DNA from: a virus
Lineage: Duplodnaviria > Heunggongvirae > Uroviricota > Caudoviricetes
Direction: 5' to 3' (one strand)
Virus record (IMG/VR): IMGVR_UViG_2778261058_000020
DNA: 28,767 bases
Shown here: one piece after another, positions 5,180 through 25,795 of the stretch
Position numbering within the stretch: the first letter of the stretch is position 1
Layout of the letters: the number at the start of each line of letters is the position of its first letter
Program-made: the position numbers and the translations under genes
Notes under the pieces: model-generated
What the model was told of the DNA's origin: nothing
Database searches by the model: none
What the model saw: only the letters and a program-made list of their open reading frames with translations

Positions 5180-5492
5180 TGCTGATTTAATGGCTGCAAC
5201 CTTAATTTCCAGTGGCATGCCAGAACAAAAGGTAAATGATTTCCTGGATAATGTCGTATACCAGCACTATGAGCAGGCCAGAGAAAATTTAATTTCAGAA
5301 AAGCTCACGATGATTGCTGAATCATTAAGTCCTGCATGGATTATCGAAGAGTTGCGGGGAATCATTGCCAGCCAGGATAAAGTGGCGGCAGTTGCCGCCC
5401 TCGATGTGCTACAGCGAATGAGTAAAGAGCTATTCAACACTGAATTAATTTTTAAATCCGGGGGACATAATGAGCCGCACATCCCTAATTAA
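5157..5492 (+). CDS. Hypothetical early protein (111 aa)
   Basis: Track ORF; strong GAGGAGG RBS upstream of ATG 5157; 3' end overlaps the gemA start. Confidence 0.5.
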   Translation: MKIQMITDADLMAATLISSGMPEQKVNDFLDNVVYQHYEQARENLISEKLTMIAESLSPAWIIEELRGIIASQDKVAAVAALDVLQRMSKELFNTELIFKSGGHNEPHIPN

Positions 5493-6021
5493 ATTAATTC
5501 ATGTTGCCCGTCGGGAGTTGCAACTCGACGATGACACTTACCGAGCTTTTCTGGTGCAGTGCACGGGCAAAACCAGTTGCCGCGAGCTGTCTGTTGCACA
5601 ACTGGAACAAGTGCTCGATGCCATGAAAGAGCGCGGTTTTAAAAAGCAGAAAAAACATCCCCGCCGTCGCTTTAAGGGGCATGTCACACCGCGCGAGAAG
5701 ATTTATAAAATCTGGCAGCAGATGTTTCTTGATGGTTTCGTCTCCGATATCAGCGACGCCGCGCTGGACAAATACGTTGAACGTCTGACGGCCAGACGTA
5801 ATGGTGGTCAGGGTGTTTCCACGCTGGCCTGGTGTCATGGGGAATCGTTGCAGGTTGTGCTCGAAACGCTCAAGCAGTGGCATATGCGCTGCATTCGGGA
5901 AGCCTTTGCCCGACATGGCGTGCCTTTACCTGTGAGCGAAACCGGGCGGGAACTGCGCGGATATGATGCACTGACCAGTGCGTATGCCCGCGCCAGAAAC
6001 AGCGGGAGAATAGTTCTATGA
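5470..6021 (+). CDS. gemA: GemA-like protein (Mu gp16 family), 183 aa
   Basis: Track ORF; size and position directly upstream of mor with ATGA start/stop overlap; sequence resembles Mu GemA as recalled. Confidence 0.7.
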   Translation: MSRTSLIKLIHVARRELQLDDDTYRAFLVQCTGKTSCRELSVAQLEQVLDAMKERGFKKQKKHPRRRFKGHVTPREKIYKIWQQMFLDGFVSDISDAALDKYVERLTARRNGGQGVSTLAWCHGESLQVVLETLKQWHMRCIREAFARHGVPLPVSETGRELRGYDALTSAYARARNSGRIVL

Positions 6022-6419
6022 AAGAGCAGGATTTATTTGGTGATTATCAGGACGACAGTATCCTTGAATATTTTGATGATGTTCAGGAAAAATCGGGATT
6101 TCCATCTTTACTGGCTGAGCTGAATGCTCTGTTGCGACAAGAGCTGATAAGGCTTGGAGTTAACCCTGCCCACTCCCTTGAGCTGGTAGTGGCGATTTGC
6201 AATCATATCGGTGGGATTCAGGTATATGTTCCGAAAGGGAAAATACTGGAAAATCTTATCAGAGACATGCGCATCTGGCGTGATTTTGATGGGAAAAACG
6301 TAGCGGAGCTGGTGCAGCGTTACAAAGTGACATACAAAACGGTATATCAGGCCATCAAAAGAATGCGCCGACTGGAGCGTGGAAAGTATCAAATGCAACT
6401 ATTTAAGGACGAACAATGA
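6018..6419 (+). CDS. mor: Mor/C-family transcription activator (middle operon regulator-like), 133 aa
   Basis: Track ORF; C-terminal GGIQVYVPKG linker followed by an HTH (VAELVQRYKVTYKTVYQAIKRMRR) typical of the Mor/C family; follows gemA as in Mu. Confidence 0.8.
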   Translation: MKEQDLFGDYQDDSILEYFDDVQEKSGFPSLLAELNALLRQELIRLGVNPAHSLELVVAICNHIGGIQVYVPKGKILENLIRDMRIWRDFDGKNVAELVQRYKVTYKTVYQAIKRMRRLERGKYQMQLFKDEQ

Positions 6420-6913
6420 AATATCTTCCCCTTATTCTTTTACTAACTGTTACTACTGTACAAGCGGCGGATACATTCCAGCAAAAAGTCAAAGATGTTT
6501 TTCAGAAAAAAACATCCGTTGACTATACCGACTGGTACGGTAAAGGTGACGCTGCCATTGCTGAGTTTAAAGGATTTAACTTAGGTGTATATCAGGATTT
6601 AAAGACGTCTGTGCGAGATAACGAAATCAACATAAAAATGCAGTATGTTACAGGACCGGTTCGCCCCGATAGCGACGAGTTCGCTCAAATGACGTCTGCT
6701 TTATGTGAAACTGTTTTTGAGCCTTTTGTTGTCCCTGATTATGTTCGCCCGACATCATGGGACGATGATACCCCAGCCCCGCTGAATTTCATGCAAGTTA
6801 AAAATTTAAAGCAAGCTGAAGATGATCCTGTCGAAAAAACAGTAAATGGCTGGAAGATAAAAATTGATCGTTCAGTAATGAAGACTACGTGTTCTGCCCG
6901 TAAAGTTAACTGA
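6416..6913 (+). CDS. Secreted (periplasmic) protein of unknown function with cleavable signal peptide, 165 aa
   Basis: Track ORF; N-terminus MKYLPLILLLTVTTVQA followed by ADT (AXA-type cleavage site); ATGA overlap with the mor stop; coding sequence looks AT-richer than its neighbours. Confidence 0.6.
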   Translation: MKYLPLILLLTVTTVQAADTFQQKVKDVFQKKTSVDYTDWYGKGDAAIAEFKGFNLGVYQDLKTSVRDNEINIKMQYVTGPVRPDSDEFAQMTSALCETVFEPFVVPDYVRPTSWDDDTPAPLNFMQVKNLKQAEDDPVEKTVNGWKIKIDRSVMKTTCSARKVN

Positions 6914-6935
6914 ACCAATAACCTTATATTCAATG

Positions 6936-6959
6936 AAGCCGGTAAATCCGGCTTTTTTT
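6936..6959 (+). terminator. Rho-independent terminator-like hairpin (AAGCCGG-TAAAT-CCGGCTT plus T7)
   Basis: Perfect 7-bp stem, 5-nt loop, run of seven T; sits 23 nt after the stop codon of ORF 6416..6913. Confidence 0.7.
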
Positions 6960-7014
6960 ATGCCTCCGGCACCATGAAGCAGACCACGTTTAAATCTGCT
7001 TCACAGGTGCTTTT

Positions 7015-7611
7015 ATGGAAAATCTAAAATTCTCCCCGGCCTTTGAGCATGCGCTGAATTTTATTCTGCGTCCTGATATCGAAGGCGGCTATGTCAATGA
7101 CCCCACTGACAGTGGCGGCGAAACCAAATACGGCATTTCTGACCGCCGCGACGGTGTGATTGACGGCAAAACCGATGTCAACGGCGACGGCAAACCGGAT
7201 ACCCGCATTAAGGATTTAACCCGCGAACAGGTTGCGCAGATTTACTGGCGCGATTACTGGCTACCTGCCGGATGTGACCAGTGGCCTGATGGCGTGGCGA
7301 TGTTTGTGTTCGATGCGGCGGTTCAGCATGGCGTTAAAAAAGCCATCAGGATTTTGCAGGAAGCCGCTGATGTGGATGCTGACGGCATCATCGGCCCACG
7401 TACCCGTAAGGCCGTGAGCCTGTCCACACCGGATTGGTTGCTGGCCCGCTGCATTGTCCGTCGTTCCTGCTTTTATGCCGACATCATCAAGTCAAAACCC
7501 GCCCAGGGCAAATACCTGAACGGCTGGTTTAACCGCATGGAAAAACTGACCGACGCCTGTCTGGAAATCATCGATACCCCTTTGGGCATCATGTCCGCCA
7601 CGCGGGGGTGA
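7015..7611 (+). CDS. lys: Endolysin, GH108-type N-terminal domain plus PG_binding_3-like C-terminal domain (198 aa), no N-terminal TM/SAR segment
   Basis: Track ORF; motifs EGGYVNDPTDSGGETKYGIS and RDYWLPAGCDQWPDGVAMFVFDAAVQHG ... DGIIGPRTRKAV typical of GH108/PG-binding-3 lysins; position equals Mu lys. Confidence 0.75.
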   Translation: MENLKFSPAFEHALNFILRPDIEGGYVNDPTDSGGETKYGISDRRDGVIDGKTDVNGDGKPDTRIKDLTREQVAQIYWRDYWLPAGCDQWPDGVAMFVFDAAVQHGVKKAIRILQEAADVDADGIIGPRTRKAVSLSTPDWLLARCIVRRSCFYADIIKSKPAQGKYLNGWFNRMEKLTDACLEIIDTPLGIMSATRG

Positions 7612-8234: not shown

Positions 8235-8830
8235 CCCTTTCAGGCATCGCCTCTGTTCTGCTGAAAGCCGGGCCGGGGCTGATTCGTTCCGTCGGGCGCT
8301 GGTTTGGTGGCAGTACATCTGCCGCCGCTGACTCGGTGGCCGGTATGGTGGAAAGCGTCCGGGAAAGCCTTCCCGTTGCTGAACAGCAACGCATTCTGGA
8401 ACAAAAACTGGTGATGCTGTCACCGGAGCAACTGGTGCAACTGGAAACCCTGAAAATTCAGCTGCAACAGCTGGAGGTGGAACGGCAGAAGCTGGTGCTG
8501 GCTGACCAGCAGGCCGCACACCACGAACAGCAGGAAACCATCCGCAATGGTGACAACGCCACGGACAGCTATGTGCGCCAGACACGCCCGCTGCTGGCCC
8601 GCCTTTCCTGTTACAGCAGTCTGGCCTATGTGCTGTTGCTCTCCTGCGGCCAGATTGCCGGAGCCATTGCCGGTGCCAGAGGTATCACGCTGCATATGCC
8701 ATCACCGGACTGGGATATCACGCTGATGTTGCTTACCCCGGCGCTGGGCTATCTCGGTGTAAGAACCCTTGACGGCTTTGCCCGTTACAGCAAATCAAGC
8801 CGTCACAAAATGTCTGCGGGGCCGAAATGA
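8222..8830 (+). CDS. Membrane/coiled-coil protein, possible holin-like protein (202 aa)
   Basis: Track ORF; Gln/Leu-rich central coiled-coil region and C-terminal hydrophobic segments; adjacent to endolysin. Confidence 0.45.
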   Translation: MDPLTLSGIASVLLKAGPGLIRSVGRWFGGSTSAAADSVAGMVESVRESLPVAEQQRILEQKLVMLSPEQLVQLETLKIQLQQLEVERQKLVLADQQAAHHEQQETIRNGDNATDSYVRQTRPLLARLSCYSSLAYVLLLSCGQIAGAIAGARGITLHMPSPDWDITLMLLTPALGYLGVRTLDGFARYSKSSRHKMSAGPK

Positions 8831-9054
8831 CCGACGAAATCGATCGCATCAGTGAAGTGGTTCTGAACGAGCGTCAGAGCGTCGTTAAAGCCTGGCAGAC
8901 ACGGACAAAAGAAGCGCCCCACAGCCGGGGCTTCTGCAATGACTGCGGGAACGTTATTCCGGCACAGCGCCTTGCGGCGCTGCCGGATGTGGTGACCTGT
9001 ATTGACTGTCAGCAGATGCGGGAACGCAGGAGGAAAACGTGTCCTGGGAAATGA
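8827..9054 (+). CDS. TraR/DksA-family C4-type zinc-finger protein (75 aa)
   Basis: Track ORF; CNDCGNVIPAQRLAALPDVVTCIDCQ gives C-x2-C-x17-C-x2-C spacing typical of phage TraR-like proteins. Confidence 0.55.
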   Translation: MTDEIDRISEVVLNERQSVVKAWQTRTKEAPHSRGFCNDCGNVIPAQRLAALPDVVTCIDCQQMRERRRKTCPGK

Positions 9055-9344
9055 TCAGAGCCAACTGGCCCATTCTGTGGGCATTGCTGATGACAGGAAT
9101 AAACCTGCTTCAGTTGATTCTGGCAAAGACCTACGTCAAACGCGAAGAGTTTGATTTGCTGCGTTCCCGCGTGTCGGTGATGGAAAGCCAGGTACATCAG
9201 CTACCTGATCGTGATGAGTTCCACCGCCTGCAACTGGATATCAGCAACCTGCGGGGAGAAATCAAAGAGCTGGGGCCATCCATCCGCCAGGTATCCCGCA
9301 TCAGCGATTTGTTATTAGAGAACGAGTTAAAGGAAAAAAATTAA
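9039..9344 (+). CDS. Small membrane-anchored coiled-coil protein (101 aa, GTG start); possible lysis or morphogenesis accessory
   Basis: Track ORF; AGGAGG RBS upstream; N-terminal hydrophobic helix WPILWALLMTGINLLQLIL then charged helical region. Confidence 0.5.
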   Translation: MSWEMIRANWPILWALLMTGINLLQLILAKTYVKREEFDLLRSRVSVMESQVHQLPDRDEFHRLQLDISNLRGEIKELGPSIRQVSRISDLLLENELKEKN

Positions 9345-13758: not shown

Positions 13759-14515
13759 AACTCTCATCCCGAAAGAGGCGCTGGCGTGGCTGAAGGCGAA
13801 GAAGCTGCGCCCCGGTTTTGATTACCGGGATGTATGGCGGGAAGAACACCGGAACAGCTTCACCGTGGCAAAAATGCTGCAACTGGATTTGTTGTCGGAT
13901 GTGAAAGCCCTTGTGGAAGACGCCCTGCAAAGCGGGCAGACGTTCAGCGAGTTCCGGGAGGCGCTGCAACCGCTGCTGATAAAACACGGATGGTGGGGCG
14001 TACAGGAGATGGATGATCCGCTGACGGGCGAAACCCGAACCGTACAGCTGGGCAGCGACCGCCGCCTCCGCACGATTTACGATACCAACATGCGCACCGC
14101 CCGCGCGGCGGGCCAGTGGGAACGCATTCAACGGACAAAGCGGGCCATGCCGTATCTGATTTACGAGCTGGGGCCATCCCGCGACCACCGGGCGGAGCAT
14201 GTGAAATGGGCGCGTCTGTGTCTGCCTGTAGACCACCCGTTCTGGCAGACGCATTTCGCCCCTAACGGCTGGGGCTGCAAATGCACCATCCGTCAGGTCA
14301 GCCGTGGTGAATATGCGCAACTGGCGGCACAGGGCACCATTCACACCGAAGCGCCGGAAATCAGAACTGTCCGCTGGGTGAACAAACGCACGGGCGAAGA
14401 GGAAGATGTGCCGGAAGGGATTGATCCGGGCTGGAACTACAATCCCGGCATAAACCGTGAGCAGGAGCTGGCGCGCCAGCTGGCGACAAAACAGGCCCGT
14501 TTTGACAGTGAGTAA
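13751..14515 (+). CDS. F: Head morphogenesis protein F (Mu gp30 / SPP1 gp7-like)
   Basis: ATG 13751 overlaps the portal stop by 8 nt (track ORF extends to 13694); position and size match Mu F. Confidence 0.8.
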   Translation: MRETLIPKEALAWLKAKKLRPGFDYRDVWREEHRNSFTVAKMLQLDLLSDVKALVEDALQSGQTFSEFREALQPLLIKHGWWGVQEMDDPLTGETRTVQLGSDRRLRTIYDTNMRTARAAGQWERIQRTKRAMPYLIYELGPSRDHRAEHVKWARLCLPVDHPFWQTHFAPNGWGCKCTIRQVSRGEYAQLAAQGTIHTEAPEIRTVRWVNKRTGEEEDVPEGIDPGWNYNPGINREQELARQLATKQARFDSE

Positions 14516-14728
14516 CCCTCCCGCCGTAAATCCCCCTGAAACGCATCAGAAACGCGTTTTTTATTCTGATGGCGTGAATGTGCATTCTGACGTTTTTGAA
14601 GATGCTGTGGCGTTTTTGAAGGGGTTTTGAAGGGGGTATTTCCCCGTTTTCAGTGAAGCCGGTAAATCCGGCTTTTTTTCTGCCTTCCGCATACTGACCG
14701 TCGGTAACCCCAAACGACGGAGACTGAC
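14516..14728. promoter_or_regulatory. F-I intergenic control region: hairpin, palindrome, three tandem TTTTGAAG repeats, second copy of terminator/dyad cassette; candidate late promoter and/or gyrase site
   Basis: Only sizeable non-coding gap in the late region; hairpin CATCAGAA/TTCTGATG (14544-14571); GAATG-TG-CATTC (14576-14587); CGTTTTTGAAG at 14591-14601 and 14611-14621; GTTTTGAAG at 14624-14632. Confidence 0.5.
14656..14679 (+). terminator. Rho-independent terminator-like hairpin, second copy (AAGCCGG-TAAAT-CCGGCTT plus T7)
   Basis: Identical in sequence to the hairpin at 6936-6959; follows gene F and precedes gene I. Confidence 0.7.
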
Positions 14729-15691
14729 ATGCAACCGGAACTGCTGGCGCTGTGTTTTTCCCTGCCAGAACCCATCCCTGAGCTGACACCCGCTCAACTG
14801 CCTGAATGGCTTGAACTCGTTCCTGCGGGTGAGTTCACCGGGCGCGATGGCCGGACGTGGATTAACCGCAATCCGCATGAGGTGGTCACCCGTTCGTCCG
14901 ACATCAAAATTCCGGTGGACATTGAACACGCCACCGAAATTAAAGGGCAACGCGGTGATGAAGCCCCGGCGTATGGCTGGGTGGAAGAACTGCGCGTGAC
15001 GGACAGCGGCACCATTGAAGGCCGTGTTGTCTGGAGCGAGTACGCCCGGTGGATGCTGAGCGAACGCCGTTACCGCTATTACAGCCCGGCGTTTTTCTTT
15101 GACGCAGACGGTGTGGTGACGCGCCTGTCCAGCGTCGGGCTGACCAACAAACCTAACCTGGATTTTCCTGCACTGAATACGGAGAAAAACCCGATGACAG
15201 TACCTGTGCAAATCACCGGCCTGCTTGGGCTGGCTGAATCTGCCACGGTGGACGATACCGTGGCCGCCATTAAACAACTTCAGGAGAACGAACAGGTGGC
15301 GCTGAACCGCGCACAGACACCTGACCTGACGAAGTTTGTACCGGTGGAAACCCACAATCTGGCACTGAACCGTGCCGAAACCGCAGAACAACGCCTTCAG
15401 CAACTGGAAGAGAAGGAAGCAGAAGCGCTTGTGGATGCGGCCATCGAAGCCGGAAAAGTGGCCCCGGCAAACCGTGACATGTTCCTTGCCACCTGCCGCA
15501 CGGAAGAAGGCCGCAAACAGTTTGCGGAATACACCAAAGGTGCACAGCCGCTGGTGAACAACGACAAGCCCAGCCAGGGCAAGGATAAACCCGCGCAGAC
15601 ACTGACCGACGCCGAACTGGCGATGTGTCGCAGCATGGGTATTACCGGGGAAGAGTTCCTCACCGCTAAACCGAAACAGGAGAATAACTGA
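14729..15691 (+). CDS. I: Head maturation protease / scaffold protein I (Mu gp32-like), 320 aa
   Basis: Track ORF; GGAG RBS; N-terminal protease-like region and Ala/Glu-rich helical C-terminus; immediately upstream of major head gene. Confidence 0.75.
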   Translation: MQPELLALCFSLPEPIPELTPAQLPEWLELVPAGEFTGRDGRTWINRNPHEVVTRSSDIKIPVDIEHATEIKGQRGDEAPAYGWVEELRVTDSGTIEGRVVWSEYARWMLSERRYRYYSPAFFFDADGVVTRLSSVGLTNKPNLDFPALNTEKNPMTVPVQITGLLGLAESATVDDTVAAIKQLQENEQVALNRAQTPDLTKFVPVETHNLALNRAETAEQRLQQLEEKEAEALVDAAIEAGKVAPANRDMFLATCRTEEGRKQFAEYTKGAQPLVNNDKPSQGKDKPAQTLTDAELAMCRSMGITGEEFLTAKPKQENN

Positions 15692-24198: not shown

Positions 24199-25268
24199 TG
24201 GAATCCGTGATTCTTACCGTTGACGGCAAACTGTGGGAAGGCTGGACGGAAATGTCCATCAGCCGTTCCCTGAAGGCGATTGCCGGTGAGTTTGATCTCA
24301 GTGTGACAACCCGCTGGTCAGCGGCGGCACCGCGCGTGATTCGTGAGGGGCAACCCTGCACGGTCAGGCTGGGCGCGGATACCGTGCTGACGGGGTATAT
24401 TGATGATTTTATCCCCAGCTATGACGCAGATAACGTGGAGATCCGCGTCATGGGGCGCGACAAAACCGGTGACCTGGTGGACTGCTCTGTGGTGCATTCA
24501 TCCGGGAAATGGAAAGGCGTGCGGCTTGAACAGGTGGCGGCTGATGTCTGCCGCCCGTTCGGGATAACTGTCATCACGGAAACCCCGACCGGGGAGGCGT
24601 TTGCGTCCGTTGTTCTGGAACAGGGTGAAACGGGCTTTGAACTGCTCGACCGGCTGGCAAAACAGCGCGGCGTTCTGCTGACGTCTGACGGCGCAGGTAA
24701 CCTGATTATCACCCGCGCCTCTTCCGTTCGCGCGGGTGTGTCACTGGTGCTGGGGAAAAATATCCTCGCTGCCCGTGGGCGCTTCAGCTGGCGGGAGCGT
24801 AACAGCCAGTACATCATCAAGGGCACCACCAGTGCCGGTGGCAAACTGTGGGACAGCCAGCCTGCCTCGATGGTGGGTGGTCGCCAGTACATCACCGAAG
24901 ACCCGGAAATTAACCGTTACCGCCCGCGCATTCTGGTCAATGAAGACAGCCTGACCGTGGGCGGGGCCAGCATTCGCGGGGAATGGTACAAAGCCCGGAT
25001 GCTGGGGGAATCCCGCACGACGGAAATCACGGTGGCAGGCTGGCGCGAACAGGGCGACAGCGGCCCGCTGTGGCAGACCAACCGCCTTGTCGATATCGAC
25101 GACAGCATTCAGAACCTGAAAACCACCTGGCTGATATCCGGGGTGACCTGGACGGATGGCGCACAGGGGCGGATGACGGTTCTGGCGCTGGTTCCGCCTG
25201 AATCACTGGATATGCCGGAAATGAAAGCGAAGACGAAGAAAACAAAGGCGGTGGCCACATGGGATTAA
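24198..25268 (+). CDS. P: Baseplate hub protein P (Mu gp44, phage late control D-like), 356 aa
   Basis: Track ORF; ATGA-type overlap with N; order and size. Confidence 0.7.
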   Translation: MESVILTVDGKLWEGWTEMSISRSLKAIAGEFDLSVTTRWSAAAPRVIREGQPCTVRLGADTVLTGYIDDFIPSYDADNVEIRVMGRDKTGDLVDCSVVHSSGKWKGVRLEQVAADVCRPFGITVITETPTGEAFASVVLEQGETGFELLDRLAKQRGVLLTSDGAGNLIITRASSVRAGVSLVLGKNILAARGRFSWRERNSQYIIKGTTSAGGKLWDSQPASMVGGRQYITEDPEINRYRPRILVNEDSLTVGGASIRGEWYKARMLGESRTTEITVAGWREQGDSGPLWQTNRLVDIDDSIQNLKTTWLISGVTWTDGAQGRMTVLALVPPESLDMPEMKAKTKKTKAVATWD

Positions 25269-25795
25269 ACGCCATTACCCGCCGTCTGCGGCTGATGGTT
25301 GACCGTGCCATTGTCCGCATGGTGTCTGACAGTCTGGAGCGGCAGAATCTTCAAATTCAGACGCTGGCAGATGCCACTGATGACGATGTGGAACGCTTCC
25401 AGAATTACGGTTTTACTTCCGTTCCGCCGGAAGGTTCAGAAGCCATCGTGCTGGCCGTGGGCGGACGGCGTGATGGTCTGGTTGCCATCGCGGTGGAGGA
25501 CAAGCGATGTCGCCCTAAAGGACTGTCCCCCGGCGATGTCCGGCTGTATCACCAGGACGGCAAATCACATATCACGTTAAAGAAAGGCGGTATTATTGAA
25601 ATCACAGGAGAACAATTAAATCTTTCAGGGAAAACGGTAAATCTCACCGCCGACGAATTGCTGAATATTATCGGTAAACAAATGAAATTCGTCGGTCCCT
25701 GTGAATTTACTGAAGATGCCACCATCAACGGCAAATCATTCATCGAACACATTCATAAGGACGGCGACAATGAGAATACATCACCGCCCGTATGA
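25259..25795 (+). CDS. Baseplate assembly / spike protein (Mu gp45, gpV-like), 178 aa
   Basis: Track ORF; order and size. Confidence 0.6.
   Translation: MGLNAITRRLRLMVDRAIVRMVSDSLERQNLQIQTLADATDDDVERFQNYGFTSVPPEGSEAIVLAVGGRRDGLVAIAVEDKRCRPKGLSPGDVRLYHQDGKSHITLKKGGIIEITGEQLNLSGKTVNLTADELLNIIGKQMKFVGPCEFTEDATINGKSFIEHIHKDGDNENTSPPV

Follow-up and report, generated by a model that had tools for sequence, protein, structure and literature searches.

The 44-nt cassette that occurs twice in the 28,767-nt stretch of DNA analysed here (the window) is very probably a Pm-type, Mor-activated promoter overlapping an intrinsic terminator, which would drive the late operons of a Mu-like phage that encodes Mor only. 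This reading is based on homology to the phage Mu promoter Pm in the same register, on the fold of the cassette, on gene content and on conservation in relatives, and from these we infer that Mor binds and is required, where transcription starts, and that the upstream transcripts terminate. As an element type, a terminator lying over a Mor-dependent promoter is already known from Mu; new here are the circuit without the Mu activator C and the presence of Pm-type boxes at late positions. No earlier report of Mor-box late promoters in C-less Mu-like phages was found in a search that covered only part of the older Mu literature.

By gene content and order, the window is a Mu-like prophage (Table 1), in which I is followed by the major head protein T and then by tail and baseplate genes. 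Of 5426 complete E. coli genomes, about 60 carry relatives with 93-98% identity; the prophages of E. coli ETEC1703 and bR_120_Kylling, for example, agree with the window at 97.5-100% over the stretches compared. Among deposited phages, Klebsiella phage Kp4866-3 comes closest, with a nucleotide identity of about 69%. No Rfam family scores above its gathering threshold in the window. The lys operon additionally contains a TraR/DksA-family C4 zinc-finger protein (8827-9054; TIGR02419 above cut-off), which could tune RNA polymerase in late development; this or other proteins could form an additional regulatory tier.

Table 1. Genes and predicted regulatory elements of the window referred to in the text.
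Feature	Position	Strand	Remarks
Transposase A, then B	1-1998 (A)		First genes of the window
GemA	5470-6021		Directly before mor
mor	6018-6419	+	Pfam PF08765, 6.6e-30; last-but-one gene of the early operon
165-aa ORF	6416-6913		Between mor and cassette 1; overlaps the mor stop (ATGA)
A/T-rich hexamer ATATTC	6926-6931	+	At the position of the Mu Pm proximal UP subsite (-57..-52), as placed by the register
Mor box 1 (predicted), AATGA-AGCCGG-TAAAT	6932-6947	+	Predicted -51..-36 of the lys promoter; 13/16 identical to AGTAAAGCCGGTTAAT
Intrinsic-terminator hairpin 1 (predicted)	6935-6959	+	Stem 6935-6942/6948-6955, loop TAAAT 6943-6947, T-run 6953-6959
Predicted -10 CACCAT, lys promoter	6970-6975	+	22 nt past the box, as TATCCT in Mu Pm
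GH108 endolysin (lys)	7015-7611	+	Pfam PF05838 and PF09374; opens the operon 3' of cassette 1
Packaging and portal genes, then F-like gene	F-like gene ends at 14515		Between lys and cassette 2
Mor box 2 (predicted), AGTGA-AGCCGG-TAAAT	14652-14667	+	Agrees with the Mu site at 14/16; predicted to span -51..-36 of the I promoter
Intrinsic-terminator hairpin 2 (predicted)	14655-14679	+	T-run 14673-14679; end of the lys-to-F operon
Predicted -10 CATACT, I promoter	14690-14695	+	22 nt past the box, Mu Pm register
I (head protease/scaffold)	14729-15691	+	Pfam PF10123, 1.8e-44; opens the head-tail operon
Candidate Mor box 3, AGGGA-AAACGG-TAAAT (AGGGAAAACGGTAAAT)	25627-25642	+	Inside the P2-gpV-like baseplate gene (25259-25795)
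Candidate -10 TATTAT for box 3	25666-25671	+	23 nt past the box

Re-comparison of the two copies bears out the first-pass annotation, which had aligned 6934-6977 with 14654-14697 at 38 of 44 nt, with the first 26 nt identical, and had placed each copy just before a late operon start. The repeat reaches 5 nt farther upstream, a repeat finder pairing 6929-6971 with 14649-14691 (43 nt, 91%). Its 24-mer AAGCCGGTAAATCCGGCTTTTTTT occurs exactly twice in the window, both times on the plus strand, and this sharing is beyond chance expectation, with 0 matches in 100 dinucleotide shuffles when 3 mismatches are tolerated. The search for further copies that the annotation had suggested found none of the full cassette in the window at up to 3 mismatches. 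Copy 1 lies 21 nt past the stop of the 165-aa ORF and 55 nt ahead of the endolysin ATG (7015), while copy 2 lies inside the 213-nt gap from the end of the F-like gene to the I ATG.

This F-I gap has further structure of its own. Between 14516 and 14650 it contains two more terminator-like hairpins, one at about 14541-14566 and one at 14632-14645, as well as TTTTGAAGGGG, a tandem repeat of 11 nt (14614-14635). Over 46 nt (14593-14638), unannotated DNA of E. coli SE11 and of two further genomes also matches the gap. The corresponding gap of Kp4866-3 has AAACGCGCCACGG in common with the Mu region beside the annotated central gyrase cut site.

Structurally, both copies form an 8-bp stem capped by a 5-nt loop (about -12.6 kcal/mol, copy 2 to -12.8) and followed by U's, with fold z-scores against shuffled controls of -3.6 (copy 1) and -2.8 (copy 2), and both are detected by a terminator scan. 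Each has the sequence features of an intrinsic terminator, namely a GC-rich stem-loop directly followed by a U-tract, located at the end of an operon on the strand that is transcribed. Each is predicted to terminate the upstream transcript, which is that of the early operon for copy 1 and that of the lys-to-F operon for copy 2. The description of a 19-bp dyad followed by seven T is correct for the length of the T-run; only five T follow the dyad, since the first two T of the run are the dyad's last two bases. The resemblance to canonical Rho-independent terminators extends to the GC-rich 8-bp stem, the 5-nt loop, the seven U, the operon end and the single orientation. The cassettes differ from them in that the DNA of the 5' arm and loop doubles as a predicted activator site, and in that a predicted promoter fires about 23 nt downstream.

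The cassettes are closely related to one defined element of Mu. In the Mu genome (AF083977), the Mor-activated middle promoter Pm is annotated at 9163-9233, and a TransTermHP terminator is annotated within this feature at 9179-9200. Mu Pm, AGTAAAGCCGGTTAATCCGGCTTTTTTT...TATCCT, is near-identical to the cassettes; over the stretch acAGTAAAGCCGGTTAATCCGGCTTTTTTTacgtcctcaaTATCCTgtgatgaA the window cassette differs by three or four substitutions, and over acAGTAAAGCCGGTTAATCCGGCTTTTTTTacgtcctcaaTATCCT the cassettes agree with Mu in the box, the hairpin, the T-run and the register of the -10. The Mu hairpin we take to be the early terminator t9.2, the TransTermHP annotation sitting at 9.18-9.20 kb.

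In Mu, Mor binds a 16-bp element at -51..-36, the footprint of Mor alone covers -56..-36, and Pm has a -10 but no -35 (PMC4390567, PMC4287176). The numbering of Pm was fixed from PMC4390567 Table 3, where wild-type -57..-52 is GTAAAC, the proximal UP subsite; it follows that the Mu Mor site at -51..-36 is AGTAAAGCCGGTTAAT (AGTAA-AGCCGG-TTAAT) and that the -10 is TATCCT. Carried over to the window, this register defines at both copies a 16-bp element with 5-bp half-sites and a 6-bp G/C-rich spacer, AGCCGG, which is the same as in Mu. The spacing is likewise that of Pm, with 22 nt from the box to the -10 and no -35 at either copy (best match 1-2/6), and it implies a predicted box centre at -43.5. 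Starts are thereby predicted near 6982-6983 for the lys promoter and near 14702-14703 for the I promoter, giving predicted 5' leaders of about 32 nt (copy 1) and about 26 nt (copy 2), similar in length to Mu, where the Pm leader is 24 nt. At the UP subsite position copy 2 has GTTTTC; this hexamer and ATATTC of copy 1 are A/T-rich yet unlike the Mu GTAAAC.

Where the first-pass annotation had seen no convincing -10 hexamer, the candidates CACCAT and CATACT emerge from the Mu Pm register and from their conservation in relatives. CACCAT is itself a poor -10 (3/6), and when the first 20 kb were scanned for sigma-70 promoters, none was placed close to the start of either late operon. Further caveats concern the left half-site, AATGA or AGTGA against AGTAA in Mu, and the "dyad" of the box, which is less symmetric than Mu's. 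The loop (TAAAT against TTAAT) and the -10 (CACCAT or CATACT against TATCCT) also differ. The likeness to Mu Pm comprises a box identical at 13-14 of 16 positions, the arms AAGCCGG/CCGGCTT, the T7 run, the 22-nt spacing, the missing -35 and the same position after mor; some Mu-type phages also have a GH108 gene downstream. The arrangement differs, since Mu has a single such element, which drives a middle operon whose product C activates the late promoters, whereas the window has the element before lys and before I, plus a hairpin-less box in the gpV-like gene.

The proposal that the cassette acts both as a terminator and as the activator's site thus keeps its substance, given the terminator features, the Pm homology in register and the Mor orthologue upstream; the homology together with the encoded Mor gives it a direct experimental precedent. 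What does not stand is the equation of the site with the 19-bp dyad. The predicted Mor box consists of the 5 nt upstream of the hairpin, the left arm and the loop, and its centre lies 5.5 bp upstream of the hairpin's centre of symmetry. The perfect dyad as such is very probably not the binding site, because the right arm and the T-run fall outside the footprint of Mor alone and because they are variable or absent at the I and gpV sites of relatives. Spacer mutations downstream of the Mor site are cited in PMC2582627 as altering Mu Pm activity, and the conservation of right arm and T-run at the first site could be partly promoter-related rather than terminator-related.

Directly 3' of both -10 candidates, at 6977-7003 and 14698-14720, lie additional palindromes: GAAGCAGA...TCTGCTTC before lys, and CCGTCG...CGACGG before I, the latter running into the GGAG Shine-Dalgarno of I. 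Relatives have a stem of other sequence at the same place (e.g. GGAAAGTG/CACTTTCC and CTGTCCGTC/GACGGACAG). Since its 5' arm overlaps the predicted +1, this stem would occur only in read-through RNA, where it might mask translation; alternatively, it may be a DNA operator.

The cognate activator is encoded in the early operon. The Mor of the window matches Mu Mor in phmmer at 1e-52 versus 1e-15 for Mu C. It shares 63-64% of its residues with Mu Mor and 31% with Mu C, and it is nearly identical to Mu Mor in the helix-turn-helix region, which contains the recognition helix. No second Mor/C-family ORF is found in the window (ORFs of at least 40 aa, phmmer), and no C gene in a 98%-identical PGAP-annotated E. 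coli prophage, which has a single Mor-family gene from repressor to tail fibre, nor in the complete Kp4866-3 genome, which likewise has one. At Mu late promoters C binds TTAT-N5-6-ATAA (PMC12867686); this pattern is absent from the late operon starts of the window, its only two window matches (3140 and 3777) lying in the early region. Mor and C do not cross-activate in Mu (PMC4390567, PMC4287176).

The first-pass annotation had modelled the two sites on the C-dependent promoters Plys and PI of Mu, and this model falls for want of a C gene and of C-type boxes; the sites are boxes of the Pm (Mor) type. The likeness to the Mu late promoters is one of position and logic. In both phages promoters stand, or are predicted, before lys, before I and inside a baseplate or tail gene (PP inside N in Mu), with the activator site centred at -43.5, a -10 and no -35, and Mu too has predicted terminators directly upstream of Plys and PI. 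The difference is that Mu's late promoters are bound by C. The 165-aa ORF was considered as a substitute late regulator and rejected: it has no Pfam, PHROG or NCBIfam match and is absent from most Mor-only relatives, being confined to the lineage of the window and a small number of others, and Kp4866-3 has an unrelated 110-aa ORF in its place, which makes a core regulator unlikely.

Scanning GTDB genomes and IMG/VR with a Mor alignment yielded 67 loci. Those with a scorable Mor gene divide into 23 true Mu-type loci (Mor plus C) and about 41 Mor-only loci with the window's gene order, and the distribution of boxes follows this division: the 41 Mor-only loci have one box before lys and another before I, while the 23 Mor-plus-C loci have a box at Pm only. 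At the site after mor (site 1), AAGCCGG-TWAAT-CCGGCTT plus T7-9 is invariant in all loci of both groups (about 60). The left half-site there is AGTAA, AATGA, AAGGA, AACAA, AATAA, ATTAA or ATGGA, and the -10 is TATCCT, CACCAT, CAAAAT, CAATAT, TAAATT or CACTAT, A2 and T6 always being kept. Copy 1 is best seen, from sequence and position, as the positional orthologue of Mu Pm, because the cassette after mor is invariant and a GH108 lys homologue follows Pm in some Mu-type phages. Such a homologue stands directly after Pm, in the middle operon, of Yersinia phage vB_YpM_5 (L003, 14273-14833; Mor plus C), which also has an annotated lysozyme (RrrD) gene after C, and in the Mu-type loci L039, L041-L044, L051 and L058-L061. 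Kp4866-3 has an inverted box-like sequence, AAGGAAGAAGGTAAAT (8363-8378, minus strand), in what is predicted to be the 5' leader, some 45 nt beyond the box at its lys site.

At the second site, a box precedes I in all 41 Mor-only loci, in 25 distinct sequences, and is absent from the C-dependent PI of Mu, where the best match is 10-11/16. The invariant columns are A-51, A-47, A-46, G-41, T-40, A-38, A-37 and T-36, and the -10 has the form [C/G]A[T/C]ACT (CATACT, GACACT, CACACT), again with A2 and T6 always kept. The U-tract gives way to a C/T-mixed sequence in most lineages other than the window's, and the right arm varies. The persistence of box and -10 while the U-tract often decays argues that the conserved function at the I site is a promoter, not a terminator; conversely, selection for termination can be argued at site 1, where the T-run is invariant although dispensable at the I and gpV sites. 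The hairpin around the TWAAT loop is nevertheless mostly kept at site 2, with 83% of cells paired versus 64-68% in slid controls, in which the pairing partner is shifted one column. Changes on both sides are seen in two pairs (A-U/G-C, C-G/G-C), G-U wobbles are used, and the covariation score is reached by 0 of 500 shuffles. The wobbles point to a constraint on the RNA rather than a DNA palindrome, and the covariation is suggestive only, because independent events are few and the purine-rich and pyrimidine-rich arms give a high background of pairing.

The relaxed pattern ADKRAANNNNGTWAAT, built from the invariant columns, matches the window exactly three times, all on the plus strand, versus 0.02 expected; in a true Mu-type genome it matches once, at Pm. 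The third window match lies inside the gpV-like gene, a parallel to Mu PP inside gene N, and has no hairpin, as expected within coding sequence; its predicted start is near 25679. Conservation was followed in 45 loci with a gpV-like gene, nine lineage representatives serving for the codon-position test. Lineages in which amino-acid identity has fallen to about 63% still have the box, with Gly always encoded by GGG, Val by GTA or GTT and Asn by AAT. Over its six codons, identity at third codon positions is 0.70 versus 0.40 averaged over the gene, the highest among 173 windows, so that the stretch has the top synonymous-site conservation despite lying in an otherwise poorly conserved part of the protein. 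Box 3 is graded as a candidate because the -10 is weaker in some diverged lineages. Three other, weaker 16-mer matches (9651, 22378 and 9099 on the minus strand) were rejected: they break invariant columns (A-51, G-41 or A-38/-37), lack a -10 in register and lie inside coding sequences.

Three other explanations of the repeated cassette have been weighed against the Mor promoter. It is improbable that the 19-bp palindrome AAGCCGG-TAAAT-CCGGCTT is itself the site of a dimeric activator, with its symmetry serving a protein rather than RNA. The palindrome is indeed perfect, and at site 1 about 60 loci have it unchanged; compensatory changes preserve symmetry at some I sites, and a preprint reports that Mor and C bind as tetramers with a large (26-bp) occupancy; yet the Mu dyad is -51..-36, and the footprint of Mor alone stops at -36 and excludes the right arm. 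Moreover, one and the same Mor would face AGCCGG/CCGGCT arms at lys and AGGCGG/CCGCCT arms at I in L065, and AGCCGG/CCGGCT at lys and AAGCGG/CCACTT at I in Kp4866-3 (L002) and its relatives, and since the arms differ between the two sites of one genome, their bases would not be read specifically. The G-U (G-T) wobbles preserve an RNA helix but not a DNA palindrome, and the gpV site lacks the right arm altogether.

Both copies have perfect terminator anatomy and their -10 candidates, CACCAT above all, are weak, as would be expected if an efficient terminator had merely been copied to two operon ends, with the late genes expressed by read-through or from other promoters. This is very unlikely all the same, because conservation extends from 5 nt upstream of the hairpin to 30 nt past the T-run in the exact register of Mu Pm, the homologous element, whose nature as a Mor-dependent promoter has been defined by experiment. 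In relatives, the I site loses the U-tract and keeps the 16-bp box and -10, a hairpin-less box is conserved at synonymous sites of the gpV-like gene, and the sigma-70 scan of the first 20 kb offers no other site near the late operon starts. That the second copy is a small mobile repeat or a recent patch of gene conversion or duplication, and serves no selected function where it stands, would fit the fact that the copies are far more alike than their flanks and share the spacer TGCCT between site 1 and the window-type site 2. We hold this to be very unlikely: the box stands before I in 41 of 41 Mor-only loci from five host genera, with Mor identity down to about 58-70%, the full-cassette form recurs in diverged lineages (the window, L006, L010, L024, L025 and L062), and the window has no additional copies.

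For the favoured reading, a Pm-type Mor promoter laid over a terminator, the following course of events is proposed. At copy 1, hairpin and U-tract would bring the early transcript to its end. The Mor translated from this transcript would bind the 16-bp DNA box (A-R-T-G-A/AGCCGG/TAAAT), and its site, centred about 43.5 bp upstream of the start, would replace a -35 for sigma-70 RNA polymerase. The polymerase would then use the weak -10, CACCAT or CATACT, 22 nt past the box, and the new RNA would begin about 23 nt past the T-run; starting beyond the T-run and so not including the hairpin, it would escape termination. Copy 2 would provide a second stop-and-restart, separating the lysis/packaging operon from the head-tail operon. 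Because the clade has Mor and no C, the late operons would be under the direct control of Mor-type promoters, those before lys and I and probably a third in the gpV-like gene, giving a two-tier cascade in place of Mu's three tiers.

Extended beyond the window, the evidence inclines us to think that an enterobacterial Mu-like clade exists in which one Mor activates all late operons, with one promoter inside the gpV-like gene, and in which box and hairpin have co-evolved. The hosts of the Mor-only clade are E. coli, Klebsiella, Raoultella, Kluyvera and Pluralibacter, and it is present in about 1% of complete E. coli genomes. The identity of Mor to Mu C (31%) versus that to Mu Mor (63%) suggests that the clade lost C and was re-wired, or that Mu gained C.

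In a prophage clade that is common but unstudied, the lys and I late operons would thereby be assigned to one known activator type, with testable predictions of the box, the -10 and starts near 6983 and 14703, and a candidate third near 25679. The terminator hairpin over an activator site, seen once in Mu, would be a reusable module, and its layers appear separated, the box and -10 being kept everywhere and the U-tract only where strong termination seems required. The Mor-only clade also offers a natural comparison for the split in specificity between Mor and C that has been studied biochemically and structurally in Mu. If the reading is true, Mu and this clade would form a natural before/after pair for how a duplicated activator-promoter system gains exclusive specificity.
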